Source: a virus (Duplodnaviria > Caudoviricetes). Taken from it: a stretch of 64,000 bases of DNA. Position numbers and translations under genes: made by a program. The notes under the pieces are model-generated. The model saw nothing but the letters and a program-made list of their open reading frames with translations, was not told where the DNA came from and made no database searches. Shown one piece after another: positions 33,074 to 56,232 of this stretch. Within the stretch, counting starts at the first letter, position 1. Every line of letters starts with the position of its first letter. The stretch is taken from positions 64,001 through 128,000 of the IMG/VR virus record IMGVR_UViG_3300035497_000279; one strand, 5' to 3'.

Positions 33074-33132
33074 CTTAATTCAATGTGCTCAATTTACTTA
33101 TTTAAATTAAAGCCATTAAACAGACTAATAAT
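33074..33132. promoter_or_regulatory. divergent late promoter pair: CACA-TTGAAT-TAAG (-, 33074-33087) and AACA-GACTAA-TAAT (+, 33119-33132)
   Basis: Between the divergent genes 33054(-) and RNAP 33152(+). Confidence 0.6.
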
Positions 33133-33151
33133 ACCGAAAGGAGGTCTTAGG

Positions 33152-37578: not shown

Positions 37579-38487
37579 ATGGCTGACATCAAAAAGACAC
37601 TCTTGAAGAAGACAATTAATGGTAAGGTCGTAGGTCTGTATCCTCAGACTAGTGCCGACATCGTTACGTACGGCGAATCAAGTACGGTTGCAGCTGAGCT
37701 TGCTGCTATTATTTCCAAAGTTGGCACTACAGACGTGTCAGCACAGATCAGCGCTGCTGTTGAGCAGGCTAAGAAGGATATCTTAGGTCTGGATGATACT
37801 AATACAAAGATCAGCGAGGCGTATGATACTCTTAGAGAGATCGCTGAGTGGATCGAGAATGATACGAATGGAGCCGCTGCCATTGCTAATGACGTAGCTA
37901 CATTGAAGTCAGATCTTAATACAGCTAATACTGGCTTAAAGGCTAGAGTTAGTGCTCTTGAGACTACAGTTGGCGATGCTAATTCTGGTCTTGTTAAGAG
38001 CGTTGCTCAGAATACATCTGACATTTCTACCAACGCTGGAAATATCTCTACAAATACTAGCGATATTACTAAGCTCAAGGGAACAGTTGGTGATTCCACT
38101 TCTGGTCTTGTAGCTGATGTTGCTAAGAATACATCTGATATTAGCACCAACGCTGCAAATATCAAGACAAATGCTGACAATATCTCTACAAATACTAGCG
38201 ATATTACTACACTTAAGGGAACAGTTGGTGATTCCAAGTCTGGCCTCGTAGCTGATGTTGCTAAGAATACATCTGATATTTCTACTAACGCTGCAAATAT
38301 CAAGACAAATGCTGATAATATCGCTACTAACGTTGCAAATATCAAGACAAATGCTGACGACATTGACGCTGCTGAGAAGAGACTTGATAGTCTTGAGGCT
38401 GCTAAGACAACTGTTCAGGTCGTTTCCTCTAGCTACTCTGAGAGCGACATGAACGCTAATGATCTGTACTTCGTAGAAATTGCATAA
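37579..38487 (+). CDS. fibre protein with N-terminal YPxTSAD module and trimeric coiled-coil stalk
   Basis: KTINGKVVGLYPQTSAD; AYDTLREIAEWI fibre motif; I-x-x-N heptads. Confidence 0.7.
   Translation: MADIKKTLLKKTINGKVVGLYPQTSADIVTYGESSTVAAELAAIISKVGTTDVSAQISAAVEQAKKDILGLDDTNTKISEAYDTLREIAEWIENDTNGAAAIANDVATLKSDLNTANTGLKARVSALETTVGDANSGLVKSVAQNTSDISTNAGNISTNTSDITKLKGTVGDSTSGLVADVAKNTSDISTNAANIKTNADNISTNTSDITTLKGTVGDSKSGLVADVAKNTSDISTNAANIKTNADNIATNVANIKTNADDIDAAEKRLDSLEAAKTTVQVVSSSYSESDMNANDLYFVEIA
37960..38370 (+). repeat. in-frame 138-bp tandem unit with 21-bp (heptad) subrepeats
   Basis: aatatctctacaaatactagcgatattacta occurs at 38041 and 38179 (138 bp apart); repeated gcaaatatcaagacaaatgctga. 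Confidence 0.85.
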
Positions 38488-38534
38488 CCGCTTATATAGA
38501 TAGTCTATGACTTCTGTATAAAAGCATAAATAAC

Positions 38535-38562
38535 CCTCTCTGGATATTATTATCCAGAGAGG
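38535..38562 (+). terminator. hairpin CCTCTCTGGATA-ttat-TATCCAGAGAGG
   Basis: 12-bp stem after 38487. Confidence 0.65.
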
Positions 38563-38589
38563 ATAAAAACTTTATAGGGCGGTGAGAAT

Positions 38590-38856
38590 TTGGAAAAGGA
38601 AGTAGAACTTAAAAAGAAGGTAGGCAATTCTGCGTATGTGATTTTCCCAAAAACATCTGCTAAACTAGTTAAGTATTCCGATACTCAATCCATCGCAGAT
38701 GTTCTTGAATCTATTTTGAGTGACATCAAATCGATTAAGAATTCTCTCGCTGTTTCTGAGACAGTATATGCAGCTGATAGTTCTGGTAAGACGATAGATG
38801 ATGGAAGCGGGGCAAACATCATTTTGTTGACTAAGGCTCCAACGACAGAAAGTTAA
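38590..38856 (+). CDS. small YPKTSA-module protein
   Basis: KKVGNSAYVIFPKTSAKLV; TTG start with GGCGGTG ribosome-binding site. Confidence 0.6.
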   Translation: MEKEVELKKKVGNSAYVIFPKTSAKLVKYSDTQSIADVLESILSDIKSIKNSLAVSETVYAADSSGKTIDDGSGANIILLTKAPTTES

Positions 38857-38917
38857 AGCAACCGTTAACAAAACATATGGTGATATTAAGTAAATTCGCG
38901 AATTGACTTACTATTAA

Positions 38918-38944
38918 ACTCCGCTAGGTAATTCCTAGCGGAGT
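38918..38944. terminator. hairpin ACTCCGCTAGG-taatt-CCTAGCGGAGT between convergent genes
   Basis: 11-bp perfect stem. Confidence 0.75.
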
Positions 38945-38957
38945 ACAATTTGTTAAA

Positions 38958-39398
38958 TTAATTTTCATCTTCTGTTTTATTAAGATCCTCAATATCAATT
39001 TTATTAGGATCATTCTTTCTTTGGTATGCTGATATTAAAGCTATTTTATCATCATTACCAGAGATAGAAATTACTAAGTATAAAATAAACTCTTTAGTTT
39101 TCAAGATATCAATTGAGTAATTTACTGATTTAACTCCTGAAAGCATTTTATCAATATTTCTATAAGTAAGGTTTATGATATCATTCTTTTCACCATGAGT
39201 TGAATAAGAACAATTATACTTATCAGTATTATCTTTAATAAAATTAAGATGTATATATACTACCCCCAAATTCTTTACATCTAATACAGCAATCATTGAT
39301 TTGGTTGTACTTTTAATGAAGGCTGCTTTCTGATTTATTAATATAGAATCATCCTCATCTTGTACAATTACTTCTAAATCTAAATCTAATTTTTCCAT
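38958..39398 (-). CDS. hypothetical protein
   Basis: GGGAGGA ribosome-binding site; own late-promoter motif at 39422-39435; hairpin downstream. Confidence 0.6.
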   Translation of the reverse strand: MEKLDLDLEVIVQDEDDSILINQKAAFIKSTTKSMIAVLDVKNLGVVYIHLNFIKDNTDKYNCSYSTHGEKNDIINLTYRNIDKMLSGVKSVNYSIDILKTKEFILYLVISISGNDDKIALISAYQRKNDPNKIDIEDLNKTEDEN

Positions 39399-39421
39399 AA
39401 GTGTATCCTCCCTTACATAAA

Positions 39422-39485
39422 TTTATAAAAATGTTATACCTTATATATTAAACCAAAATACACTTATCTTTAACATTTAAGTATA
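39422..39485. promoter_or_regulatory. divergent late promoter pair: AACA-TTTTTA-TAAA (-, 39422-39435) and AACA-TTTAAG-TATA (+, 39472-39485)
   Basis: Between 39398(-) and 39564(+). Confidence 0.55.
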
Positions 39486-39563
39486 AAAATATCTGAAGAG
39501 TGTATGATAGTTTATCTATCTTCGACAGCTATAAAAATCTAATGAAAGGTGGAATTTATAATT

Positions 39564-40103
39564 ATGAGCGTAGGAAAAGATATTTATAAAGGCGCAATAG
39601 CAAAAGAAATTGAAGGCGAACAACTAGTAATTTATCCAAAAACAAGTGCTGACATGGTAGTCGTAGGGGATTCCACCCTAGATAGTGAGATGACAAAAAT
39701 TAAAAATAATAGTTATCACCCAACCAATACTGCTAGAACTTCTGGCTTATATAATATTACGGTTGATACATATGGGCATGTAACTGGAGCTACAAAAGTA
39801 ACTACTAGTGATTTAACAGCCTTAGGAGTTGCTGAATCTACATCTGTCGAGAAAGTACATAAAGTTGAAGAATTTCTTATTTACTTTAATGATTGGGATG
39901 ATGGAATTCTTGATTTATCATCAAAGTATCCTGATGATAAATATAATGTATATATGGATAGATCATCTAAGATGGATAAAAATCAGGCTACCGCTTTAGC
40001 AAATGCCATTATCTGTGGTGATAGTACTTCTAATAAATTTAAATGCTTAGGCACTGTGCCAACAATTGATATTTGGGTAATGCTTGAAATAGTAGAAAAG
40101 TAA
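39564..40103 (+). CDS. tail-fibre-related protein (YPKTSAD module)
   Basis: KEIEGEQLVIYPKTSAD; SGLYNITVDTYGHVT fibre motif; C-terminal GTVPTIDI domain shared with 40230. Confidence 0.65.
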   Translation: MSVGKDIYKGAIAKEIEGEQLVIYPKTSADMVVVGDSTLDSEMTKIKNNSYHPTNTARTSGLYNITVDTYGHVTGATKVTTSDLTALGVAESTSVEKVHKVEEFLIYFNDWDDGILDLSSKYPDDKYNVYMDRSSKMDKNQATALANAIICGDSTSNKFKCLGTVPTIDIWVMLEIVEK

Positions 40104-40106
40104 ATA

Positions 40107-40132
40107 TAGGGATGGGGTAATTCCCATCCCTA
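40107..40132 (+). terminator. hairpin TAGGGATGGG-gtaatt-CCCATCCCTA
   Basis: 10-bp stem directly after 40103. Confidence 0.7.
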
Positions 40133-40161
40133 AATTCAGCCTATGTATATTTTATTTAAAA

Positions 40162-40175
40162 AACATCTAATTAAT
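40162..40175 (+). promoter_or_regulatory. late promoter motif AACA-TCTAAT-TAAT
   Basis: Upstream of 40230 and the adhesin array. Confidence 0.65.
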
Positions 40176-40229
40176 AATCCGTAGATTAATACAGGTTAAA
40201 AATTTTTAAAGAAAGGAAGGTACTTAAGT

Positions 40230-40976
40230 ATGGCAATCAATAAAGCTACATTAGCTAAAGAGATCGATGGTATAATCGAGTATATTTACCCTAAGACTTC
40301 TGGCGATATTGTTGTGTATGATGAAACTCATAGTGTAAGCACCATGATTCAATCCTTAGTAAATAATAAAGTTGATAAGGAAGACAATAAGGGATTGTCT
40401 ACTAATGACTTTACTAATTACTATAAGAATATATTGGACAATTATGAGAGCAAAGACGATACTGTTAATATTACTATAGATAGTACTTTATCTAGTTCTA
40501 GTGAGAATGCTGTTCAAAATAAAGTATTGACATCTAAATTTAATGAGATTCTTAATACTATTGGATCTACTGCATACATAACAGGAATCGGAGATGGAAC
40601 AATTACAAACGCTATTAAGTATGTAAAGGACTCTATTGAGACTTCATCTTCAAAAAATGAAGAATCATATAAAACCCTTACCCAGAGTATTGCTGATGTA
40701 AAGGCTTCTAGAGAACCCACACATACAATCGTAGCTTATACATTAAAGGCTAGTGGTTGGGAAAATGGTAAGTATTCTTTGGAAGCAGACTATTCATCTT
40801 CTAAGTATAATGTGTATATTGATAAGGGTGTTAATGTAACTCAGGATCAAAATGATGCACTTGCTGCGGCTAATATTTCTAGCTCTATTGGCAATAATAT
40901 TCTTACAGTAAATGGTACTGTACCAACAATTGATATCCCTGTAACGCTTGAAGTTGTGGATATCTCTGATACTTAA
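40230..40976 (+). CDS. tail-fibre-related protein (YPKTS module)
   Basis: KEIDGIIEYIYPKTSGD; KVDK..KGLSTNDFT, DSTLS..SENAVQNK and IGDGTIT fibre motifs; GTVPTIDI. Confidence 0.65.
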   Translation: MAINKATLAKEIDGIIEYIYPKTSGDIVVYDETHSVSTMIQSLVNNKVDKEDNKGLSTNDFTNYYKNILDNYESKDDTVNITIDSTLSSSSENAVQNKVLTSKFNEILNTIGSTAYITGIGDGTITNAIKYVKDSIETSSSKNEESYKTLTQSIADVKASREPTHTIVAYTLKASGWENGKYSLEADYSSSKYNVYIDKGVNVTQDQNDALAAANISSSIGNNILTVNGTVPTIDIPVTLEVVDISDT

Positions 40977-41011
40977 TAATTAAATCTTAGTAAAGGTTAG
41001 GTGAATGATAT

Positions 41012-41470
41012 ATGGGAAATGAAATTGAAAAGTGTGATACATATATAAATATTAAGCGTTTTAAGAGTTTTTCTATGGGGAAGACATTTAATATTCCATT
41101 TGGTACTAAATGTATTTGTAACTCTGATGGATTAATTATCAGAGAAAATAAAGATGGAGATAATGACATATTGTGTTATTTTAAATCTGAAAATGCATAC
41201 AGATACTTTGTACCTATGATAGATGATCATTGGCTTGAAAGAGGTAATTTACAGAAAGCTATTTGGAATAAGATAGATTCTACTGTATCATCAGTGGAAA
41301 TTCATGATAAATGCTTTGATATTTTATTAGAAGACACTATTGCAAATAAATATAGAAAGATGAACGATGATGTTGATAGATCTATGTTTAATTGGGACCG
41401 TTTGAAATTTAACTATGCACCATTATATGATTTGCAACATATGTGGTCTATTATAAAAGATGTAAAATAG
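41012..41470 (+). CDS. hypothetical protein of tail-fibre gene clusters
   Basis: NIPFGT..LC..SENA..F..ERG pattern recalled from Firmicute phage tail regions. Confidence 0.55.
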   Translation: MGNEIEKCDTYINIKRFKSFSMGKTFNIPFGTKCICNSDGLIIRENKDGDNDILCYFKSENAYRYFVPMIDDHWLERGNLQKAIWNKIDSTVSSVEIHDKCFDILLEDTIANKYRKMNDDVDRSMFNWDRLKFNYAPLYDLQHMWSIIKDVK

Positions 41471-41860: not shown

Positions 41861-43828
41861 ATGTCTGCAATTGTTAGAAACATAGGAGAACAAATGACTG
41901 CCTCTGCAACTGCAACATCGATTATTGTAGATACATTACCCACTAAGATAGACTACAAAGTCGGAGAGATTTTAGATCTCTCCGGCATGATCGTATCTAT
42001 ACAATATGATGACGGAAGCTCTGAGCAGATTTCAAATTATACCACACATCCTGATAATGGAGCTACACTTACAAAACTTGATGATGTAGTATCAGTATCT
42101 TGGGTATCTGATGATGGAATTACAGAAGCTGTATCATTTGATATCAATGTAAAATACGTAAAAGGAATTAGTGTTGTTGATACTCCTACAAAAACATCGT
42201 ATGTTGCTGGAGAAACATTTAGCTCAAGTGGACTTACTGTATACAAAAATTATTCTGATGGAACATCTGAGCAAATTACTGACTATTCTTTATCTGATAT
42301 AGTAGATGGAACGATTGTTAGTAAGAATACTGATACTACTGTAGACGTTAGTTATACTGATGAATATGATGAAACTTTTAGTACATCATTTAATATTAGT
42401 GTAAAATATGTTACAGGAATTACTATAACAACTAACCCTACAAAAACATCGTATACTGCTGGAGATTCACTTAGTTTAAGTGGAATGGTAGTTAAGAAAA
42501 ATTACTCAGATAATACATCTGAGGAAATTACTGATTATACTACATCTCCTGCTAAGGGAGCTACTCTTACTAAGTCTGATAGCACTGTAACTGTTAGTTA
42601 CACTACCAATAGTGAAACTTTTACTACCTCTTATAGTATTACTGTAAAGTATGTAACTGGTATTACTGTTTCAACCAAGCCTACAACAACATCATACTAT
42701 GCTGGAGATACTCTTGATTTAACTGGAATGGTGGTTAAGAAGAAATATTCAGATGGCACAACTTCAACCATAACTGGTTATACCACATCACCTTCTGAAT
42801 ATTCAACACTTATTAAGTCTGATACTAGCGTTACTGTAAAATATACTACCGATGGTAGTACTTTTACTACATCATTTAGTATTACTGTAGCATATGTTAC
42901 AGGGATTAAAGTGTATACGAAGCCAACTACAACTACCTACACAGCTGGTGCTAAGCTAAGTACATCCGGAATGGTTATCCATAAAGTGTATAGTGATAAT
43001 ACTAGTGTTAAGATTACCAATTGGACTACATCCCCTACCAATGGATCAACATTGAGTACATCAAATACAAAGATTACAATTACAGCCACTGTTGATAGTA
43101 CTAGTTATACTTGTACCCAGAGTATTACAGTTAAGGCTGCTATTGCATATTGGGCTACCAGTACATATTCGGCTATTTCAACCTTTTTAAGTTCTGTAGA
43201 TAATGGTGATTATAGTATTTCTTCATATTGGTCTGTTGGTGATGAGAGAACTATTACTCTTAGTGATGATGATAGTACCGAACTTACATTTGTTGTAGAG
43301 GATTTAAATGGTAGCACATCTGGCGGAACTAAATACCATGCTATTATTGGACAAAAGGAAATATACGATGACCTCACCAAATTCGCAAGTTCAACTGTTA
43401 CTGGATATAATAATTCAGATATAAAAACATATCTGAACGATACTTATTATACATATTTACCTTCTACATTTAAAAACATAATTAAATCTAGTAGCCATAT
43501 TGCAGGCACTACTTCTGGTTCTACTCAAACAGTCTCTAGTGTTAAATTTGTATTGCGCTCAGAAAAAGAAGTTATTGGTGAATGTACATATTCTGTATCT
43601 ACTGAAGCTAGTAAATGTAAACAATTTACATATTATGCTACAACTAGTAATAGAATTAAATACTGGGATAGTAATAGCACAAATAATAGAATTAGAACCC
43701 ATGAATACTGGACTAGATCATGTTGCACGGCCAGTAGTACCCCAGGTGTATGTATAGCTAGTGATGGAGATTCATGGGCCTGTAACCAAGGTAAAAATGA
43801 GGGAGTATCTCCATTCTGTTGTATTTAA
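41861..43828 (+). CDS. adhesin paralog 1: 5 Ig-like (Big_3-type) domains + DUF6273/CLec-like tip
   Basis: Repeats of I-x-V-x-x-P-x-K-T-x-Y-x-x-G-D/E-x-L-D-L-x-G-M-V-V; tip motifs YWSVGDER, YWTRS, GVSPFCCI. Confidence 0.75.
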   Translation: MSAIVRNIGEQMTASATATSIIVDTLPTKIDYKVGEILDLSGMIVSIQYDDGSSEQISNYTTHPDNGATLTKLDDVVSVSWVSDDGITEAVSFDINVKYVKGISVVDTPTKTSYVAGETFSSSGLTVYKNYSDGTSEQITDYSLSDIVDGTIVSKNTDTTVDVSYTDEYDETFSTSFNISVKYVTGITITTNPTKTSYTAGDSLSLSGMVVKKNYSDNTSEEITDYTTSPAKGATLTKSDSTVTVSYTTNSETFTTSYSITVKYVTGITVSTKPTTTSYYAGDTLDLTGMVVKKKYSDGTTSTITGYTTSPSEYSTLIKSDTSVTVKYTTDGSTFTTSFSITVAYVTGIKVYTKPTTTTYTAGAKLSTSGMVIHKVYSDNTSVKITNWTTSPTNGSTLSTSNTKITITATVDSTSYTCTQSITVKAAIAYWATSTYSAISTFLSSVDNGDYSISSYWSVGDERTITLSDDDSTELTFVVEDLNGSTSGGTKYHAIIGQKEIYDDLTKFASSTVTGYNNSDIKTYLNDTYYTYLPSTFKNIIKSSSHIAGTTSGSTQTVSSVKFVLRSEKEVIGECTYSVSTEASKCKQFTYYATTSNRIKYWDSNSTNNRIRTHEYWTRSCCTASSTPGVCIASDGDSWACNQGKNEGVSPFCCI

Positions 43829-43909
43829 TTAAATCATATTGTATATAAATTTCCTAATATTATATTTACTCGATATATAAAGCATAAAAATAAGAAAGGA
43901 AAATAAGCT

Positions 43910-45916
43910 ATGTCTGCAATCGCTAGAAATTGCGGTGGAGCATTACCCGTCGCAAAGATACTTCATGTAACTGCACCTGCTAAGACTAGCTACGCTTCTG
44001 GAGATAAATTAAATCTTTCCGGAATGTCTGTAACTGTCGAATATACTGATGGTAATATTGAAGAAGTTACTGATTTTAGTACATCTCCCGCTAATGGTGC
44101 TAAGCTTACTAAAGGTACCAATATAGTTAACGTCAATTGGACTGACGAAGATGGTTACACTTTAACTGCATCATTCGGTATTACAGTGAAATATGTAATA
44201 GATATTTTTATTACAAGTAATGCTAAACATACTGTTTTTGATGTAGGTGATTTTCTTAATACTAATGGGTTGGAAGTTTCTGCTAAATATTCTGATAATA
44301 GTTCTAAACCTATAGATATTAATAGTTTATCATTCTCTCCTGAAGAGCAAGCTCAACTTAAGCTGGGAGATGATGAAGTTAGAATTTATTATGAGTGTGA
44401 TGACGGAGAATTTGCTATTTTATACCCAATATCAGTGGCACTTCCAACAATTGCTGTTACAACATTGCCTAAAAAGACTAGTTATATAGAAGGAGAAATT
44501 TTAGATTACACTGGTATAGGTATTACTTTACAATATAATACTGGTGAAACTGAAGATATTAGTAATTCAACATCTACTTCTATATATCCATATAATGAAA
44601 CTGAAGTTGATAAAGATAAGACAGATATTACTGTAACTTATAATGACGTATTTGGTAATACCATGACTACATCATTCAAAATAACTGTAGCGTCAATGAC
44701 AGGTATTAAAGTAGTATCCAAACCAAATATAACTACTTATGTTAAAAACCAACATGTTAACACTGATGGTCTTGTAGTTTATGCTGAATATGACAATGGT
44801 GCATCTAAAGAGATTACTGATTATACTACATCTCCTGCTAATGGGACTGAGCTTACTGATACCACTACTGTAACAGAAATAGTTGTTAATTATACAGATA
44901 GTAGTGGTAAAACTTTTAGTGATTCTATACCTATTGAATATAACGCTGTTAAACAGATTATGTTCAATAGTGTTAGTATTATAGATGAAATAATCTACCC
45001 AGGTACAAAACTTGATTATGAAGATTATAATATTGAAATTGTTGGTATTTGTTATGATGGAAGTAGTTTTACTTTATCGGAAGATGAATACACTTTATCT
45101 CCTGCTGATGGTACTAAATTAACTGTAGATGATAAAGAAATTATAGCTACTGCTACTCTTAGTGGAGAAACATTCACAGTATCTTATCCTATCACAGTAG
45201 CATATGATACTGCTAAATGGACATCATCAACATACTCAACTATTAAAAAATTCCTTTCTTCATGTGATGCTGGAGTTTATGATATTAAATCATATTGGTC
45301 AGTTGGTGATGAAAGAAGTATAACTTTTAGTAGTAATACTGTTGGTGAAACTGTTACAGGAGTTGTAATGGATTTAGATGGTACTACATCTGGTGGAACT
45401 AAATATCATGCTATTATTGGTCAGAAGAATTGTTTGAAGACCACTATGGCAATGACCAATTATAGTGATGGGACAACTTATGGTGGGTATCTTAATTCAC
45501 CTGTACCTACTTATTTAACTGGAACTTATTATAAAGGTATTACATCATCTTTAAAAGATATGATTATTCTAAGTGACCATATATGTGGTTTTGGTGGTGA
45601 AGATACAACAGATATATATGACCCAATACAATTAGTTCGTGACTATATTATTCTGCCTTCTGAAATGGAAGTAATTGGGTATAATAGGTATTCTTCTCCA
45701 AATGAAACACTTATGTGTAAACAATTTGAATGGTATAAAACAACAGCCAATTGTATAAAAACTCTTGGAAATAGCTCAACAACAAAAACTGTTTGGACAC
45801 TTAGATCGCCAGTATTAGGATCATCAACTGCATATTGTGCTGTTGATACATCTGGGATGTATACCTCTTATGATGCAAGTACCAAAGGTGGTATTTCACC
45901 ATTTTTCTGCATATAA
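43910..45916 (+). CDS. adhesin paralog 2: 5 Ig-like domains + DUF6273-like tip
   Basis: Same architecture; WTLRS, GISPFFCI. Confidence 0.75.
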   Translation: MSAIARNCGGALPVAKILHVTAPAKTSYASGDKLNLSGMSVTVEYTDGNIEEVTDFSTSPANGAKLTKGTNIVNVNWTDEDGYTLTASFGITVKYVIDIFITSNAKHTVFDVGDFLNTNGLEVSAKYSDNSSKPIDINSLSFSPEEQAQLKLGDDEVRIYYECDDGEFAILYPISVALPTIAVTTLPKKTSYIEGEILDYTGIGITLQYNTGETEDISNSTSTSIYPYNETEVDKDKTDITVTYNDVFGNTMTTSFKITVASMTGIKVVSKPNITTYVKNQHVNTDGLVVYAEYDNGASKEITDYTTSPANGTELTDTTTVTEIVVNYTDSSGKTFSDSIPIEYNAVKQIMFNSVSIIDEIIYPGTKLDYEDYNIEIVGICYDGSSFTLSEDEYTLSPADGTKLTVDDKEIIATATLSGETFTVSYPITVAYDTAKWTSSTYSTIKKFLSSCDAGVYDIKSYWSVGDERSITFSSNTVGETVTGVVMDLDGTTSGGTKYHAIIGQKNCLKTTMAMTNYSDGTTYGGYLNSPVPTYLTGTYYKGITSSLKDMIILSDHICGFGGEDTTDIYDPIQLVRDYIILPSEMEVIGYNRYSSPNETLMCKQFEWYKTTANCIKTLGNSSTTKTVWTLRSPVLGSSTAYCAVDTSGMYTSYDASTKGGISPFFCI

Positions 45917-45968
45917 TAACCTAAATAATAAAACTAATCAATAATACTAGAATGAAAGGAAGAGAGCT

Positions 45969-47483
45969 ATGTCTGCAATCGTTAGATATTGTGGTGGTAG
46001 TGTAATAGATAATTCTGATTCTACTACTGTAACTGCAAAAGTACTTCATGTAACTGCACCTGCTAAGACTAGCTACAATGCTGGAGATATTTTAGATATC
46101 TCTGGCATAATTGTAACTGTAGAATATAGCGATGGTACAACTAAACAAGTTGATGATTTTAGTACATATCCGTATAATGGAACTGCAATTTCTAAGAACA
46201 CTAGTAGTGTTTCAGTAAATTGGAGTGATGAAAATGGTACTAGTCTTGCATCATCATTTGACATTAGTGTAAAGTATGTGACAGGAATCAATGTAGATAC
46301 TTTACCAAATAAAACCATGTATGTTGAAGGTAATACTATTGATCTTACTGGATTAGTAGTATCTGCCAAGTATTCTGATGGAACATCAGAAACCATTTCT
46401 GGCTATACAACATCTCCTGCTAATAGTGCTGAAGTTTCTAGAAATGATTCTAAGGTTACTATTAGTTACACTATTAGTAATGAGACCTTTAATACATCTT
46501 ATGATATTACTGTAAAATATGTTACAGGAATTAAGGTTACTACACCTCCAACTAAAACTTCATATGCTGCTGGGGATAAATTAAGTACAGCTGGAATGGT
46601 TGTATCTTCAGTATATAGTGATAATACTACAGAAGATATTACAGATTATACTACATCTCCTGCTAATGGTGCCGCATTAAAATCATCAGATACTTCTATC
46701 TCAATTAGTGCCACAATAAATAATACTAAGTATACAACATCTCAGACTATTACTATTGCTCCTTCAGTTGCATATTGGGGGACTAGTAGTGCTGTAGAAA
46801 TTGCTGATTTCTTAGAGAAATGTGATGCTGGAACTTATGATATTAGTTCATACTGGTCTATTGGAGATGAAAGATATATGGAAATGTATCCATATAGTGA
46901 TGACGATACTGCTAATGTATCTGAAGATATCTCATATGTAATAGAAGATTTAGATGGTACTACATCTGGTGGGACTAAATATCATGCTATTATTGGTCAG
47001 AAGAATTGTTTGAGCATTGGAATTAAGATGAATAGTAGCAATGATAACCGTGGAGGCTACTCAAACACTGATATGTGTGTATATCTTGAAGGTACTTATG
47101 AATCTAAATTCCCAGAGGATTTACTTAAACTCATTATACCAAGTAATCATATTTCAGGCAATGGTTCTAGTGGAACTCAGACAAATAATAATGTTAAATT
47201 CATACTGCATTCGGAGAAAGAAATTCTTGGTGACTGTGTGAATTCTATTCAAGATGAAGCTAGTGCATGTAAGATGTTTAAATACTATGCTATAAGTAGT
47301 AACCGTATAAAGAAGTTAGGAGAATCAGGAATTGATACTAACTGGTGGTTAAGATCTAGTGGTTCAGGATATTCTTATTCATTCTGTACTATAACTGGAT
47401 CTGGAAGTTCTGGTTCAACTGCTGCTGGTGGTATAGGTTATTGTACTACTGAAAATGGTGTTGCACCATTCGCTTGCATTTAA
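45969..47483 (+). CDS. adhesin paralog 3: 3 Ig-like domains + DUF6273-like tip
   Basis: Same architecture; WWLRS, GVAPFACI. Confidence 0.75.
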   Translation: MSAIVRYCGGSVIDNSDSTTVTAKVLHVTAPAKTSYNAGDILDISGIIVTVEYSDGTTKQVDDFSTYPYNGTAISKNTSSVSVNWSDENGTSLASSFDISVKYVTGINVDTLPNKTMYVEGNTIDLTGLVVSAKYSDGTSETISGYTTSPANSAEVSRNDSKVTISYTISNETFNTSYDITVKYVTGIKVTTPPTKTSYAAGDKLSTAGMVVSSVYSDNTTEDITDYTTSPANGAALKSSDTSISISATINNTKYTTSQTITIAPSVAYWGTSSAVEIADFLEKCDAGTYDISSYWSIGDERYMEMYPYSDDDTANVSEDISYVIEDLDGTTSGGTKYHAIIGQKNCLSIGIKMNSSNDNRGGYSNTDMCVYLEGTYESKFPEDLLKLIIPSNHISGNGSSGTQTNNNVKFILHSEKEILGDCVNSIQDEASACKMFKYYAISSNRIKKLGESGIDTNWWLRSSGSGYSYSFCTITGSGSSGSTAAGGIGYCTTENGVAPFACI

Positions 47484-47513
47484 TTATATTAATAAACCAA
47501 TACATCATGAATC

Positions 47514-47538
47514 CAATAAAGCATTACGCTTTATTGGG
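47514..47538 (+). terminator. hairpin CCAATAAAGC-attac-GCTTTATTGG inside the adhesin array
   Basis: 10-bp stem, extendable with G-U pairs, between paralogs 3 and 4. Confidence 0.6.
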
Positions 47539-47609
47539 TTTATGGTATTATTATTTAAAATATATAGCACTAGTGCTAAAATAATTTTATAGATTGAAGG
47601 TGATATTAA

Positions 47610-48587
47610 ATGTCTTTAATTATTAGAAATAATCCTACAGGTAAAAATAAATCTGTAGAATCAATTGAGATTATATCTCCGCCTACAAAGACTAAGTATA
47701 AAGATGGTGAAACTATAAATTTAGATGGAATGATAGTGGCAAAAAAATATGATGATAACAGTTTTGAAATGGTTACAGATTATGCCGCTACTCCAGCCAA
47801 TGGAGAAACATATGCAGCAGATACAATAGAATCAATCACAGTAACTGTTACTATAGATGAAACAGAATATACTTGTTCTCAAAATATTACTAATATTCCT
47901 AACGATATTGCATATTGGGGGACTAGTTATTTCAGTGATATCAAAACATTTTTAGCAGCATGTGATGATGGAGTATATGATATTAAATCATATTGGTCGG
48001 TTGGTGATGAAAGAGGTATTGATTATACTGATGGATATGATAATATATTTGTAGTTGAAGATTTAGATGGTACTACATCTGGTGGAACTAAATATCATGC
48101 TATTATTGGAGAGAAAAATTCTAATTATTACAATCACATGTTTAATACAACAGATTATGATACTAGCGGTGGGTATAATGGTACTGAAATGAAAACCTAT
48201 ATTGATGATACTTATTATACTTATATACCTTCTCAATTTAGAAAAATAATAAAAAAATCAGATCATATTTCAGGAGCTGGTGCGTCTGGGATACAAACAA
48301 CCTCTGGAGTTAAATTCATACTGCATTCAGAGAAAGAAATTTTAGGCAAATGTGAATATTCTGTCCAAGAAGAGGCTGATGCATGTAAACAGTTTGAGTA
48401 CTTTAAAACAAGTTCTAATAGAATAAAAGATGATTATTGGTGGACAAGATCTACAAAATCAAATACTCAATACCAATTCTGCGCAATTAATAAAACAGGA
48501 GATAGTTACGGAGCATATGCTGGTCTTAATTCTTCTGGCGTTGGTGATGGAGTAGGATTAGGTATTATTGCATTTTGTTGTATTTAG
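47610..48587 (+). CDS. adhesin paralog 4: 1 Ig-like domain + DUF6273-like tip
   Basis: Same architecture; WWTRS, GIIAFCCI. Confidence 0.75.
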   Translation: MSLIIRNNPTGKNKSVESIEIISPPTKTKYKDGETINLDGMIVAKKYDDNSFEMVTDYAATPANGETYAADTIESITVTVTIDETEYTCSQNITNIPNDIAYWGTSYFSDIKTFLAACDDGVYDIKSYWSVGDERGIDYTDGYDNIFVVEDLDGTTSGGTKYHAIIGEKNSNYYNHMFNTTDYDTSGGYNGTEMKTYIDDTYYTYIPSQFRKIIKKSDHISGAGASGIQTTSGVKFILHSEKEILGKCEYSVQEEADACKQFEYFKTSSNRIKDDYWWTRSTKSNTQYQFCAINKTGDSYGAYAGLNSSGVGDGVGLGIIAFCCI

Positions 48588-48618
48588 GTAATATATTAAG
48601 AATAAGAAGGTGATAACT

Positions 48619-50340
48619 ATGTCTGCAATTGTTAGGAATACTGGAGGTAATGGAGGAGTATCCAGGAAACCTGCACAATCAATCACTGTAACTACACCTC
48701 CAAATAAAACTTCATATAAAGCAGGAGAACTTTTAGACCTTACAGGATTAGTTGTTACAGCAGAATATTATAATGGAGATATAGATACTATTACAAGTTA
48801 TACTACATCTCCTGCTAATGGTGCTAAACTTACTAAAGATGATACTAGTGTTAGTATCGTATATACAGATAGTAAGGATAATACTACAATTACATCATTT
48901 CCTATTAATGTAGCATATGTAACTAGTATTAGTGTTACAGCACAACCTACAAAAACTAGCTATAAAGAAGGAGAATCTTTAGACCTTACAGGATTAGTTG
49001 TTACAGCAGATTATTCAGATAATACATCTGATGAAATTACTGATTATACTACATCTCCCACTAATGGAGCTAAACTTACTAAAGATGATACAACTATTAA
49101 CGTTAGTTATACAAATTATGAAAGTAATAGTATAGATACATCATTCACTATTGATGTAAAATATGTGACTAATGTAAGTATTACTAGTAATCCAACTAAA
49201 ACTACATACTATGAAGGAGATACTCTTGATTTAACCGGTATGGTAGTTACTGCATATTATAGTGATGATACTCATGAGACCACATTAGATTATACTACAT
49301 CCCCTAAAAATGGAGCAATACTTACTAGAAACGATACATACCTTAGTGTAAGTTATATATCACCTAGTGGTTCAGGATATGGATCAATGATTAATCTTAC
49401 TGTAAAATATATAAAAAGTATTACGTCATATAAGACAAGAACTACATACTATAATGGAGAAGAATTAAATCTATCCGATTTAACAGTATATGCTGTATAT
49501 AATACAGATAGCAGAAAAGAACTTTCTAGTTCAGATTACACTACATCTCCTGCTAAATGGACAAAATTAACCACATCAGACACTGAGATTGAAATTACTG
49601 CTACAATAAATGGTACTGAATATACATGCACTCAGAGTATTACCGTTAAACCTAATGTAATTGCCTATTGGGGAACAAGCTCTTTTGGTGATATTGCTGC
49701 GTTTTTGGCTGGATGTTGGAATGATACTTATAACATTGAATCATATTGGTCTGTTGGTGATGAAAGAAGCATAGAATTAGGCGGAGATATAAATGAGACT
49801 GTAACATATGTAGTGGAAGATTTAGTTGGAAATTCCAGTGGAGGTACATCATATAAAGCAGCTGTAGGACAAAAAAATTCTTTGAGTGAAAAAAGATCAA
49901 TGCATGATTCTAATACATTTATTAAATCATATATGTATTCAGATCTAAGAACTTGGTTGAATGATACATATTATAATTCAATACCGGAAGGATTTAAATA
50001 TATTATAAGAGGTCCACTTGATCGGTATAATGCCTATGATGGAAGTGCAGATTCTGATTTTGATTATTTCGTTTTGCATAATGAAATACAGGTTTTTGGT
50101 AATCAAACATTTGGAACTAGTGATGATATAGGAGAATTCTCAAGGCAATTTGAATGGTATAGCACTACAAGTAATCGTATAAAGAAGATAGGTGATTCTG
50201 GATCTGCTGGTATGTGGTGGCTTAGTGATTTTGAGACAAATAATACAGTTTATTGTGTAGTTGTTTCTGAAGATGGTACCAATGAATATAGAACTGGGAA
50301 AGGATCAAGTGTTGGTGTCGCTCCATATACTCAATTATAA
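48619..50340 (+). CDS. adhesin paralog 5: 4 Ig-like domains + DUF6273-like tip (most divergent tip)
   Basis: Same architecture; SDLRTWLN, WWLSD, GVAPYTQL. Confidence 0.75.
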   Translation: MSAIVRNTGGNGGVSRKPAQSITVTTPPNKTSYKAGELLDLTGLVVTAEYYNGDIDTITSYTTSPANGAKLTKDDTSVSIVYTDSKDNTTITSFPINVAYVTSISVTAQPTKTSYKEGESLDLTGLVVTADYSDNTSDEITDYTTSPTNGAKLTKDDTTINVSYTNYESNSIDTSFTIDVKYVTNVSITSNPTKTTYYEGDTLDLTGMVVTAYYSDDTHETTLDYTTSPKNGAILTRNDTYLSVSYISPSGSGYGSMINLTVKYIKSITSYKTRTTYYNGEELNLSDLTVYAVYNTDSRKELSSSDYTTSPAKWTKLTTSDTEIEITATINGTEYTCTQSITVKPNVIAYWGTSSFGDIAAFLAGCWNDTYNIESYWSVGDERSIELGGDINETVTYVVEDLVGNSSGGTSYKAAVGQKNSLSEKRSMHDSNTFIKSYMYSDLRTWLNDTYYNSIPEGFKYIIRGPLDRYNAYDGSADSDFDYFVLHNEIQVFGNQTFGTSDDIGEFSRQFEWYSTTSNRIKKIGDSGSAGMWWLSDFETNNTVYCVVVSEDGTNEYRTGKGSSVGVAPYTQL

Positions 50341-50367
50341 TCTATGAATAGGAAGGTGGTAATAATT

Positions 50368-51633
50368 ATGTCTTCATTTGTTAGAAATATTGGTGGTAGT
50401 GCGTATACTGATGGGGATTCTGAATCTGGTGGTGGTTCGTCTGATTCTAAAGTGGTAAGATTTATTACTATAACTAAACCTCCGAATAAATTAGAATATG
50501 TTGATAATGAACCTTTAAATACTTCTGGATTAATTATATCTGCAATATTTGCTAATGGTAATACAGAAATCATTAGTGATTATACTACATCTCCTGCTAA
50601 TGAAGAAGCACTTACTCTAGGTAATAATACTGTCACTGTAACTTATACAGATCAAGATGGCTATGAATTAACTACATCATTTAATATAAAATACATTACA
50701 GGAATTATTGTTACCTCGCCTCCAGATCAAATTAAATATTATCCTGATGATGGTAATAATACTTTAGATCTTACTGGCATGATTGTATCTGCTTTATGTG
50801 ATGATAATTCAACTACTCCAATTACTGACTATACTACATCATTAAATAATGGTGATATAATTACTTTAGATACTGATTCTAATATTACAATTAGAGCCAC
50901 AATAGACGGAACAGAATTTACAACAACTCAAGAAATATTTATAGTATCAGCAGTAAGTTACTGGGCTACAAGTACCACAGAGGATATTGCAAGATTTTTA
51001 AAATGCGTAGATAAAAATATTTATGATATTAAATCATATTGGGTTGTTGGTGATGAAAGAGATATAACTATGGGAAATTCTCTACCAAATACAACTTATG
51101 TTGTAATGGATTTAGATGGTACTACATCTGGTGGAACTAAATATCATGCTGTTGTTGGAGAGAAAAACTCCACTATAATTAAAGACTGGGAATATGATAG
51201 TAATAATGATGGCGCATATCATGGATATACTTATAATACTGCTTGGTCAAAGTATTTTACAGATACATATGTACCAGCATTTCCAGAAGATATACTTTCA
51301 CTAATCATACCAAGTGATCATATGTGTGGGTATGTAAATGAATCTAAAGAAATATCTGGGGAAGTAATAACTGGAGTTTATTTTATTATACCTTCTGAAA
51401 AAGAAGTTTTTGGTGCTGATTCTAAAGGATTTGCATCACCAGTTGAAACTGCTGCATGTAAACAATTTGAATGGTATAAAACAAGCGCTAATAGATCAAA
51501 GAATGTATGGTTATGGTGGTTAAGATCTGTTTATGTTGCTAACTGGAGTTTATGTCCTACCGTATATGGAGGTAATCAATCTGCATCTAGTAGTGGAATG
51601 GGGGCTTACTTAGCTCCATTCGCATGTATATAA
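50368..51633 (+). CDS. adhesin paralog 6: 2 Ig-like domains + DUF6273-like tip
   Basis: Same architecture; WWLRS, LAPFACI. Confidence 0.75.
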   Translation: MSSFVRNIGGSAYTDGDSESGGGSSDSKVVRFITITKPPNKLEYVDNEPLNTSGLIISAIFANGNTEIISDYTTSPANEEALTLGNNTVTVTYTDQDGYELTTSFNIKYITGIIVTSPPDQIKYYPDDGNNTLDLTGMIVSALCDDNSTTPITDYTTSLNNGDIITLDTDSNITIRATIDGTEFTTTQEIFIVSAVSYWATSTTEDIARFLKCVDKNIYDIKSYWVVGDERDITMGNSLPNTTYVVMDLDGTTSGGTKYHAVVGEKNSTIIKDWEYDSNNDGAYHGYTYNTAWSKYFTDTYVPAFPEDILSLIIPSDHMCGYVNESKEISGEVITGVYFIIPSEKEVFGADSKGFASPVETAACKQFEWYKTSANRSKNVWLWWLRSVYVANWSLCPTVYGGNQSASSSGMGAYLAPFACI

Positions 51634-51652
51634 GGAGGTGGTAATAATTATT

Positions 51653-52888
51653 ATGTCTTCATTTGTTAGAAATATTGGTGTGGGCATAAGTAATCAATCT
51701 TCTTATTCTGGTGATTATGAAGTAGCAAGATTTATTAGCATGGATGCATTACCGACCAAAACGCTATACATTCCTGGAGAATCTTTAGATCTTTCTGGTG
51801 TATCAATAATAGCAAAGTATAATGATGGTACAAATAAAGAAATTACTGATTATACTACATCTCCTGCTAATCATGCTGCTCTTACTGAGAATGATACTAC
51901 TATTAATGTATCTTGGATTGCCGAAGATGGTTATGAATTAACCACGTCATTTGATATAAAATTCATAAAAGGTATTACTATTACATCACCCCCTACAAAA
52001 ACAGCTTATTTAATTTATACAAACTTAGATCTTTCTGGAATGGTAGTTGCCATTGAATATTACGATGGTACTCTAGTTCCAATTACTGATTATACTGTGT
52101 CACCAGTCGATGGTACAGTATTAGATATTGATAACTCATCAGTTACAATTACCACTACAATAAATGATACTGAATTCACTGTAGTTCAGGATATTTTTGT
52201 CGGATCTGCAATTGCATATTGGGGTACTAGTAGTGCTCAAGAAATATCTGACTATTTAAATTCTGTAGATAGAGGAGTATATAACATATCAGATTACTGG
52301 GCAGTTGGTGATGAAAGAGATATAACTCTTACAAAAGATAATAGCAATGTAACTGTTAAATACGTAATAGAAGATTTAGATGGTACTACATCTGGAGGAA
52401 CTAAATACCATGCTATTATTGGGCAAAAAGATAATAATATTAGTGGATTTAGTACTGGATATACTACTAGTGGTAGTATATACGTTGGGTATAATGATTC
52501 TCTTCTTAGGGATTTTATTGATAATACTTATACACCGGCATTCCCAGATGATATATTTTCATTAATTATACCAAGTGATCATGTGTCTGGGTATTATAGT
52601 GGCGGTCAATACTTATTACAAAATAACTCTAATGTGTATTTCATATTATATGCAGAAAAAGAAGTTTTTGGTGATAATGCATATAGATCAATACCAGACG
52701 AACTTAGTGCATGTAAACAATTTGAATACTTTAAAACAACTAGTAATAGAATAAAGACGAATGCATACTGGTTAAGATCTGCTCCCTATAATACTACTGG
52801 TGATTACTGTGGTAATGTAGATACTGTGTATGCTAATACATTTAGTTCTAATGGTGGCGAACCTGTTCTGCCATTCGCATGTATATAA
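51653..52888 (+). CDS. adhesin paralog 7: 2 Ig-like domains + DUF6273-like tip
   Basis: Same architecture; YWLRS, VLPFACI. Confidence 0.75.
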   Translation: MSSFVRNIGVGISNQSSYSGDYEVARFISMDALPTKTLYIPGESLDLSGVSIIAKYNDGTNKEITDYTTSPANHAALTENDTTINVSWIAEDGYELTTSFDIKFIKGITITSPPTKTAYLIYTNLDLSGMVVAIEYYDGTLVPITDYTVSPVDGTVLDIDNSSVTITTTINDTEFTVVQDIFVGSAIAYWGTSSAQEISDYLNSVDRGVYNISDYWAVGDERDITLTKDNSNVTVKYVIEDLDGTTSGGTKYHAIIGQKDNNISGFSTGYTTSGSIYVGYNDSLLRDFIDNTYTPAFPDDIFSLIIPSDHVSGYYSGGQYLLQNNSNVYFILYAEKEVFGDNAYRSIPDELSACKQFEYFKTTSNRIKTNAYWLRSAPYNTTGDYCGNVDTVYANTFSSNGGEPVLPFACI

Positions 52889-52897
52889 TATCATATA

Positions 52898-52921
52898 ACC
52901 ACCTAGCAAATGCTAGGTGGT
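52898..52921 (+). terminator. hairpin ACCACCTAGC-aaat-GCTAGGTGGT ending the adhesin array
   Basis: 10-bp stem followed by T-rich sequence. Confidence 0.75.
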
Positions 52922-53001: not shown

Positions 53002-53865
53002 TTGACTATTACAAAAGCAGATACATATTATAAGAATACTTTATCCAATATACTTTCTTTTGGATGTATGGATATTAATCCTAGACCTAAATATTCTGAT
53101 GGTACACCTGCACATACAATAAGTATAAACCATGATATGCAAACTTATAATTTGCCTGCTGGTGATTCACCATTTGTAACTTTAAGACCTATATCAATTA
53201 AATCATCTATTGGAGAGATGCTTTGGATATATCAAGATCAATCTAATGATTTAGATCTTTTAAAAGAAAAGTATGGAATTACATGGTGGGATGAATGGGA
53301 TATCGGTAATCGTACTATAGGATCATGCTATGGAGAGACTATAAGAAGACATGATCTTATGAATCAATTATTGGAGGGTATTAAGAACGATCCAGATGGA
53401 AGAAGACACATAATAAATATGTGGCAGGTAGATGATTTTAAAGAAAAACATGGACTAAAACCATGTTGTTTTCAAACAGTATGGAATGTTAGACATAGTG
53501 AATCTGGAGTTACATATTTAGACATGTGTATGTTTCAGAGATCATCAGATTTTGCTGTAAGTTCACCAATCAATCTTTTACAATATATAGCATTATTGTA
53601 CATGGTTGCTGGGCATTTTAAATACACCCCTGGAAAATTCTCATATTTTATTGATAATATCCAGATATATGATCGTCATATATCACAAGTAAAAACTATT
53701 ATTAATAGAGAGCCATGTATGTTTGATGTTGATGATCAACCACATTTTGAAATTCCTCAGAAGAACTTTTATGATTATACTATAGATGATTTTAAAGTTG
53801 TTGGTTATCCAATGAGAGAAATTAAGGCAAAAAATCCACAGCTTAAATTTGATCTCGGTATTTAA
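53002..53865 (+). CDS. thyA: thymidylate synthase ThyA
   Basis: IWDEW-like TWWDEW, PDGRR, LKPCCFQ (catalytic Cys), QRSSDF, N-x-x-Q-Y, IYDRH; TTG start with AGGAGGT ribosome-binding site. Confidence 0.92.
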   Translation: MTITKADTYYKNTLSNILSFGCMDINPRPKYSDGTPAHTISINHDMQTYNLPAGDSPFVTLRPISIKSSIGEMLWIYQDQSNDLDLLKEKYGITWWDEWDIGNRTIGSCYGETIRRHDLMNQLLEGIKNDPDGRRHIINMWQVDDFKEKHGLKPCCFQTVWNVRHSESGVTYLDMCMFQRSSDFAVSSPINLLQYIALLYMVAGHFKYTPGKFSYFIDNIQIYDRHISQVKTIINREPCMFDVDDQPHFEIPQKNFYDYTIDDFKVVGYPMREIKAKNPQLKFDLGI

Positions 53866-55716: not shown

Positions 55717-55731
55717 TTGGAGGGTAAAGAT

Positions 55732-56232
55732 ATGGACAAAAGACTTTTTGCATATGATGTACCATCGAGTAGATTATTGAATATTAGGATTAAATACTTT
55801 GATGGAACAGCAGAAGAGTTAAATAAAATCACTAAAGGAGACTGGATTGATTTAAGAGCTGCTGAGGATGTAGTTTTACATCAGAATGATGAAGCGCTTA
55901 TTCGTTTAGGTGTAGCAATGGAACTTCCTAAAGGTTATGAAGCACATCTTACTCCTAGATCTTCTACATTTAAGAATTATGGAATTATACAGACTAATTC
56001 TATTGGTATCATTGATGGTTCTTATTGTGGAGATAATGATGAATGGATGATGCCAGTTATTTGTTTAAAGCCTAGAATGATTATCAACGATCTTCCTACA
56101 ACTATCATTAATAAAGGAGATAGAATTGCTCAATTCAGAGTTATAAAATCTCAGCCAAGAATTAATTTTATTAAAGTAAATTCACTTGGTAATGAAGATA
56201 GGAGTGGATTTGGATCTACAGGCATAAATTAG
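55732..56232 (+). CDS. dut: trimeric dUTPase
   Basis: Five motifs: WIDLRA, PRSS, GIIDGSYCG, GDRIAQ, RSGFGSTG. Confidence 0.92.
   Translation: MDKRLFAYDVPSSRLLNIRIKYFDGTAEELNKITKGDWIDLRAAEDVVLHQNDEALIRLGVAMELPKGYEAHLTPRSSTFKNYGIIQTNSIGIIDGSYCGDNDEWMMPVICLKPRMIINDLPTTIINKGDRIAQFRVIKSQPRINFIKVNSLGNEDRSGFGSTGIN

Follow-up and report, generated by a model that had tools for sequence, protein, structure and literature searches.

The analysed stretch of DNA (the window, 64,000 nucleotides) comprises bases 64001-128000 of the 235,843-bp IMG/VR virus record IMGVR_UViG_3300035497_000279, which is estimated to be 75% complete. The window has a G+C content of about 31% and encodes virion proteins, an RNA polymerase beta-type subunit of a multisubunit enzyme (33083-37498) and a 3771-amino acid (aa) open reading frame (ORF). 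Therefore, we regard the virus as a jumbo phage. At positions 41861-52888, seven tandem paralogs of the host-binding type, termed g1 to g7, are encoded in the same orientation. Six of these genes contain a 50-nucleotide (nt) block of DNA that is nearly invariant, silent sites included. This block is the subject of the present analysis.

Each of the seven genes on the + strand is preceded by its own ribosome-binding site and starts with the ATG of a common MS(A/S)(I/F)(V/A/I)R sequence. One to six Big_3 immunoglobulin (Ig)-like repeats, which form the stalk, are followed by a C-terminal, C-type-lectin-like DUF6273 tip. In g1 (41861-43828, 655 aa), the N-terminal motif is MSAIVRN, and the Pfam matches PF07523 and PF19789 are above the cut-off. 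The same architecture is found in g2 (43910-45916, 668 aa), g3 (45969-47483, 504 aa), g6 (50368-51633, 421 aa) and g7 (51653-52888, 411 aa), and g4 (47610-48587, 325 aa) consists of a single Ig-like repeat and the tip. g5 (48619-50340, 573 aa) is a divergent member, which does not share the block. The curated Pfam cut-off for DUF6273 (PF19789) is passed by six of the seven proteins. The score of g5 is below the cut-off when the protein is searched (18.3 bits); in a six-frame search, it is 21.7 bits alone and 24.8 bits with the in-frame neighbours, which passes. In the whole record, g1 to g7 are the only DUF6273 copies.

Six genes share a 50-nt block at the equivalent place in the tip

When the block in g2 (45371-45420) is taken as the reference, the copy in g4 (48060-48109) is identical, that in g3 (46947-46996) has one synonymous mismatch and that in g7 (52373-52422) has two synonymous mismatches. 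The copy in g6 (51109-51158) has two mismatches, both of which replace I by V, and the copy in g1 (43301-43350) has five, which include two synonymous changes and the replacements D>N and T>S. All six copies are on the + strand in frame 0, 515-545 nt upstream of the stop of their own gene. Thus, the positions and the mismatch counts (0-5) reported by a first-pass annotation of this DNA were confirmed, as was the equivalent place of the block in each tip. The homologous stretch in g5 (49819-49868, + strand) shows 17-22 differences from the six copies; it is saturated and was used as an internal control. Shuffled sequences gave zero block matches, and the same search found the copies at 45371, 48060, 46947, 51109 and 52373.

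The ends of the identity are staggered according to the pair of genes compared. Between g2 and g3, the identity continues for 17 nt on the right, to 45437, and the 67-bp match between 45371 and 46947 that had been claimed was reproduced (98.5% identity). On the left, 9 additional nt are common to g2 and g6 (back to 45362) and 9 nt to g3 and g7; on the right, 9 nt are common to g4 and g6. The mosaic of short flanks described by the first-pass annotation is therefore present. Moreover, g1 and g7 have a common variant within the block. The flanks had also been called barely alignable. This holds for the DNA, of which the identity is just 39-65%, but the flanks can be aligned at the protein level. 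Among all exact matches in the array, the longest comprises 51 nt.

We searched the whole 236-kb record with the block and its 12-mers, and found them solely inside the array. Thus, the record contains no outside template for the block. Across the array, the window is matched at 99.93-99.98% identity by five contigs from three other metagenome samples; the samples that contain the same phage include JGI 3300043077, 3300043078 and 3300043104. Because the contigs agree with the window, an assembly artefact can be discounted as the origin of the block. A search of IMG/VR with an exact 32-mer of the block and with peptide patterns found zero relatives, and megablast against GenBank phages gave zero matches. 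Searches for related genomes with the neighbouring genes returned coiled-coil noise or nothing.

Silent divergence drops in the block

For alignment columns with the same residue, we compared the codon identity of pairs among the six genes with the value expected from the paralogs' own codon usage. In the block, the codons were identical in 202 of 235 comparisons (86%), whereas 119.9 (51%) were expected. Outside the block, 840 of 1390 (60%) were identical and 733.8 (53%) were expected. The proportion of synonymous differences (pS, NG86 method) among the six genes was 0.20 in the block, compared with 0.59 in the remainder of the tip. A dip of the silent divergence to near 0 had been named as support for the claim; the dip is clear, but its floor is about 0.2. 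Among the columns in which a 3-6-fold degenerate residue is common to all six genes, a single codon is used in 6 of 9 within the block and in 2 of 19 outside it (Fisher p 0.005). A 17-column scan statistic had its maximum at alignment columns 106-122 (the block occupies columns 107-123), and this maximum was reached by none of 20,000 column permutations. The near-invariance of the block, silent sites included, is a real and statistically solid observation.

The six copies keep a fixed synonymous pattern, in which two Gly codons and two Thr codons are each used at set positions. Therefore, the pattern fits identity by descent of the DNA and not codon optimisation. The control gene g5 leads in the same direction. 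Its DNA identity to the other genes is 0.55-0.65 in the left flank and 0.45-0.54 in the right flank, so that it is no more distant there than the others are from each other. In the block, its identity is 56-66%, and pS between g5 and the six is 0.60. Because g5 behaves like the other genes in the flanks yet is saturated in the block, codon bias and protein constraint do not explain the block. At a slowly evolving site, g5 would also have changed little, and an explanation by slow sites fails for this reason. Thus, the claim that protein constraint is insufficient to fix the third codon positions is upheld: codon identity exceeds the expectation from codon usage, and g5 is saturated.

The block is a variable loop in metagenomic relatives

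We aligned 30 metagenomic relatives to the tip profile. In these relatives, the stretch that corresponds to the block is a variable, indel-rich loop with insertions, whereas the neighbouring DYWSVGDER is a universally conserved motif. Therefore, the block is not explained by protein constraint across the family. In P0004, which is the closest outside relative (38% identity), eight additional residues are inserted within the block. The metagenome relatives have at most 46% protein identity; otherwise, only near-identical (99.9%) contigs were found. Together with the g5 control, these alignments indicate that the identity of the block is a property of these six copies and not of the protein family.

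We modelled the tip of g4 with AlphaFold from a 60-sequence alignment (predicted local distance difference test score, 93.8). In the model, the block corresponds to residues 55-71, which comprise the end of a strand (48-59), a Gly-rich turn and a second strand (65-72). Thus, the block is predicted to encode a core beta-hairpin. Because the model places the block at these residues, it lies about a quarter of the way into the domain and not at a domain boundary. Among known structures, the model matches best to the N-terminal DUF6273 domain of an IgA peptidase from Thomasclavelia (9qa6; Z 15.4, root-mean-square deviation 2.0, 165 aligned residues). The next matches are TvpA (2y3c, Z 6.8), which is a target of a diversity-generating retroelement (DGR), and then many C-type lectin domains (Z 4.5-5.5). 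The predicted fold of the tip is accordingly C-type-lectin-like, in agreement with published descriptions of DUF6273 as C-lectin-like (PMC10743442; bioRxiv 10.1101/2024.10.15.618418). The sequence entropy of the block is near zero. Within the first half of the domain, entropy is highest in the two segments that flank the block, residues 40-51 and 74-92 of the model, which places both at the same end of the hairpin.

Smaller identity islands are present at other conserved motifs

As judged from the alignments, the block is not unique in the array, and smaller identity islands occur at other conserved peptide motifs. A second, milder island encodes SYWSVGDER (45290-45316 in g2, + strand). Its other copies are at 43223-43249, 46848, 47988, 49741, 51034 and 52292, and g5 is included. 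In this island, pS is 0.41 among the six genes and 0.33 between g5 and the six. SYWSVGDER shows little or no variation among the seven genes and all 30 metagenomic relatives, and is probably a functional or structural signature of this DUF6273 subfamily.

A third island encodes the Big_3 loop motif ITDYTTSPANG (44810-44848, + strand), and copies with three or fewer mismatches are present at 42524, 46635, 48787, 49033, 50569 and 51839. This island comprises 32-39 nt per copy of near-identical DNA, which is found in many of the repeats of six genes (among them g5), and the exact matches are 24-32 nt. The Big_3 loop island and the block have a common 10-nt core, TACTACATCT. Thr-Thr-Ser is coded as in this core in 13 of 33 cases in the array and in 0 of 22 cases elsewhere in the genome. 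Hence, codon-pair preference was rejected as the cause of the common core. Further matches are found at CKQFEWYKT (28 nt) and near the N-termini (31-35 nt).

The longest conserved peptide of the array carries the longest and cleanest island. This is understandable because gene conversion is expected to need a minimal near-identity and to stop at diverged flanks. The smaller islands at other conserved motifs therefore also match the prediction of homology-dependent conversion.

Short-patch gene conversion may maintain the block

Short-tract gene conversion in tandem gene families is characterized by a local drop in silent divergence against saturated flanks, by variable tract ends and by dependence on residual identity. 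The block has the silent dip and the variable ends. Therefore, we favour, with moderate confidence, the reading that the block is a concerted-evolution island kept by homology-dependent, short-patch gene conversion among the six copies. This mechanism is our inference, and so is the recombination machinery that would act in it; what is observed in the array is the silent dip, the fact that only six copies have it, the staggering of the ends and the absence of long common flanks. Compared with known tandem families, the tract is remarkably short, at about 50 nt, and is limited to a single hairpin. The process is most likely ordinary concerted evolution over such a short tract.

We propose the following mechanism. 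The seven genes would be old tandem duplicates of a single gene for an Ig-like stalk and a lectin-like tip, which have diverged to saturation at silent sites. Six copies would still be sufficiently alike at the core beta-hairpin for homologous pairing. Recombinational repair between the copies, of the short-patch, non-crossover type with tracts of about 30-70 nt, would keep wiping out new differences, including silent ones. Each tract would be halted by the diverged flanks, and the island may thus be self-limiting and self-perpetuating. g5 would have left the exchange.

Several points weigh against this reading. The staggered ends rest on 9-17 nt each and carry modest weight. No RecA, RecT or ERF recombinase was found in the 236-kb record, which represents an estimated 75% of the genome, and host machinery would therefore have to act. 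Tandem arrays of the tip family in five metagenomic contigs (L015, L018, L019, L023 and L026) have no equivalent block at this position, so that the effect is not general. Finally, selection on the nucleotide sequence itself would also be compatible with data from one genome.

The block as a possible crossover site

The first-pass annotation interpreted the block as a crossover or gene-conversion hub that swaps the distal variable half of the tip between genes. Recombinational homogenisation with staggered ends is indeed the best explanation, but the swapping of distal halves is not supported by the tests made. In the stronger form of this idea, the block is a selected crossover hub, kept since it lets the proximal part of one gene, comprising the stalk and the initial quarter of the lectin domain, recombine with the distal three quarters of another gene. 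Exchange within the genome or between co-infecting relatives would then create new tip combinations and alter the size of the array. We consider this rather unlikely, although several features are in its favour. Fifty identical bases in direct orientation suffice for homologous crossover, and the direct repeats in the array are of adequate length. Occasional crossovers could thus join the left portion of one gene to the right portion of a second gene even if conversion is the main process; none is visible in the data. The block also has one of the two most variable loops of the tip on either side; these are residues 40-51 and 74-92 in the model. Moreover, the best trees differ: g6 and g7 are paired on the left side of the block (support 82/93), g1 and g4 on the right side (86/93) and g2 and g3 in the N-terminal region (96/97).

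The incongruence of left and right trees that had been expected is therefore seen in the best topologies. However, it was not significant in any test: when the clade of one side was imposed on the data of the other side, all approximately unbiased (AU) tests gave p values of 0.06-0.25. Furthermore, when 53 family representatives were added, g6 and g7 were paired on the right side too. The left halves form one clade (Shimodaira-Hasegawa-like approximate likelihood ratio test, 98). For the right halves, monophyly was not rejected and was slightly better (p-AU 0.53). Because both halves fit a single origin within the lineage, there is no visible import of tips from other phages, and the import of foreign right halves was rejected on the same test of all seven.

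A recent crossover would leave a long near-identical flank in some pair of genes. No pair has such a flank, the longest exact match being that of 51 nt, and a recent swap is thus unsupported. The five contigs of the same population from three samples are colinear with zero chimeras, and their breaks are in the Big_3 repeats of g5, not at the blocks. The absence of such a block from the other arrays of the tip family also argues against a hub. Ancient swaps or rare population variants are possible, and a module-swapping role of the block is plausible but undemonstrated.

As an extension of this idea, the whole array could be a system for receptor diversification that is based on recombination and free of reverse transcriptase, with the block and the Big_3 loop island as maintained crossover sites. 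We regard this as unlikely. If it is true, chimeric tips, varied stalk lengths and varied array sizes would arise continuously in phage populations from a germline of seven lectin tips, and the array would be the recombinational counterpart of the DGRs that normally diversify the DUF6273 domain.

Other explanations of the block

The block may instead be a cis-acting nucleotide element, in which the 50 nt are read as DNA or RNA, for example as a target of a nuclease or recombinase, as a pairing site for a regulatory RNA or as a translational pause. The conservation of silent sites with fairly sharp outer limits in six genes is consistent with this, and the saturated copy in g5 could represent loss of the element. 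However, the block has no significant fold (z-scores from +0.31 to -1.92), and the predicted structure differs from copy to copy. There is no Rfam match at the block, only chance-level matches elsewhere, and the copies have no promoter-like site in common. An overlapping ORF is unsupported because all five other frames are closed by stops. In the whole record, zero copies lie outside coding sequence, and none of the ten neighbouring ORFs scanned is an endonuclease-type gene. The variation of the identity limits between pairs is also not expected of such an element. Conversion is favoured over a fixed nucleotide signal because of these pair-specific limits, the variant common to g1 and g7, the weaker islands at other motifs and the coincidence of the longest peptide with the longest island. 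Thus, we judge a cis-acting element to be improbable.

Protein constraint and AT-rich codon bias alone, with no recombination, are a very improbable cause of the block. In their favour, Asp, Lys, Tyr and His are each encoded almost exclusively by one codon in this genome, and the hairpin is predicted to be in the core of the fold. In contrast, a hand calculation from per-residue values gives a chance of about 1e-5 that two independent copies have identical codons across the block, and 17 of the 19 conserved-residue columns outside the block are codon-polymorphic. Furthermore, g5 retains 10 of the 17 residues, but almost all of its degenerate sites differ from those of the six copies.

That the block is a part of a DGR (a template repeat, a variable repeat or a homing signal) is hardly credible, although DUF6273 lectin-like and Ig-like domains are targets of DGRs in gut phages (PMC10743442; bioRxiv 10.1101/2024.10.15.618418): the 235,843-bp record, which is estimated to be 75% complete, contains no reverse transcriptase (PF00078) and no extra copy or template of the block. 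Moreover, the mismatches among the copies show no specificity for adenine. Variable repeats of one template would not be expected to look like the regions on the right, which have 39-61% identity and are set apart by indels, and the location of the block, at the beginning of the domain instead of the 3' end, is also wrong for a DGR. A shufflon or invertible cassette was rejected because all copies are direct repeats on the + strand; no search aimed at invertases was made.

Comparison with known systems

The nearest functional precedent is found in the adhesins of T-even phages. As described in PMC3157838, which cites Tetart et al. (1996/1998), the His boxes of gp37 and the glycine-rich motifs of gp38 are located between hypervariable segments, and exchanges occur in or near these motifs. 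As in the array, a short, conserved, Gly-rich core motif lies between hypervariable loops of a host-recognition protein. However, the fold here is that of C-type-lectin-like DUF6273 and not that of gp37 or gp38, seven full-length paralogs are present in one genome instead of alleles in different phages, and chimeras, which were demonstrated there by crosses, are not demonstrated in this array.

The tentaclins and other DUF6273 and Ig-like DGR targets of gut phages (PMC10743442; bioRxiv 10.1101/2024.10.15.618418) use the same domain vocabulary and are presumed to bind receptors, and we place g1 to g7 with these tentaclin-type candidates. Their domain order is reversed, since the tip is C-terminal in g1 to g7. 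In the record analysed here, the array is accompanied by no reverse transcriptase, template repeat or variable repeat, and diversity is stored as seven diverged genes instead of being made by mutagenic retrohoming.

CdiA-CT and Rhs arrays possess homology anchors (VENN and PxxxxDPxGL) upstream of orphan toxin modules, which allow recombination to replace the module; one expressed gene is followed by promoterless fragments. These arrays resemble g1 to g7 in the short conserved stretch before a variable C-terminal module and in the tandem direct repeats. In contrast, all copies in our array are complete genes, each with a separate ribosome-binding site, and immunity genes are absent.

DUF6273 tips are best known as targets of hypermutation by retroelements, and this jumbo phage keeps seven deeply diverged versions, six of which are tied together by a short DNA identity. 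If passive conversion is the only process, the block is a clean, textbook-style example of the minimal length of a conversion island and a warning that identity blocks alone do not prove swapping. If the block has mediated crossovers, it would offer a simple means of generating new host-binding combinations and a natural site at which chimeric tips could be engineered in laboratory phage-host pairs.

Other features of the array, the tip family and the neighbouring genes

g5 has lost two features common to the other six, the Cys in CKQF and the Cys-Ile at the C-terminus; in those proteins, the Cys of CKQF and the C-terminal Cys may pair as a disulfide. g5 also has the longest branch in the right-half tree. 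Because of these Cys losses and this long branch, g5 may have a different function or be in decay. Its internal Big_3 repeats (48700-49500) are about 75% identical over about 400 nt. The contigs of the same phage from other samples end near 49330, within these repeats, and most of the few single-nucleotide differences between samples are located there.

The tip family comprises 5570 representatives at E <=0.001. Two members, P0019 (3973 aa) and P0020 (3404 aa), are giant proteins with 10-12 tandem lectin-like modules. In contig L015, three adjacent short tip paralogs are encoded at 9941-12400 together with a fourth in a 1163-aa protein. The sole DNA patches common to these paralogs (30 and 44 nt) are in the right half of the domain, away from the position of the block.

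Terminator-like hairpins on the + strand are present in the gap between g3 and g4 (47504-47546) and 3' of g7 (52898-52921). Upstream of the array, the region 37579-41470 includes the gene of a coiled-coil protein (37579-38487), which has a Fibritin_C-like match, as well as several small ORFs that belong to no family. Downstream, there are genes of nucleotide metabolism, which encode ThyA (53002-53865) and dUTPase (55717-56232). The array and its upstream genes look like a fibre or decoration module placed between the RNA polymerase and nucleotide-metabolism genes.

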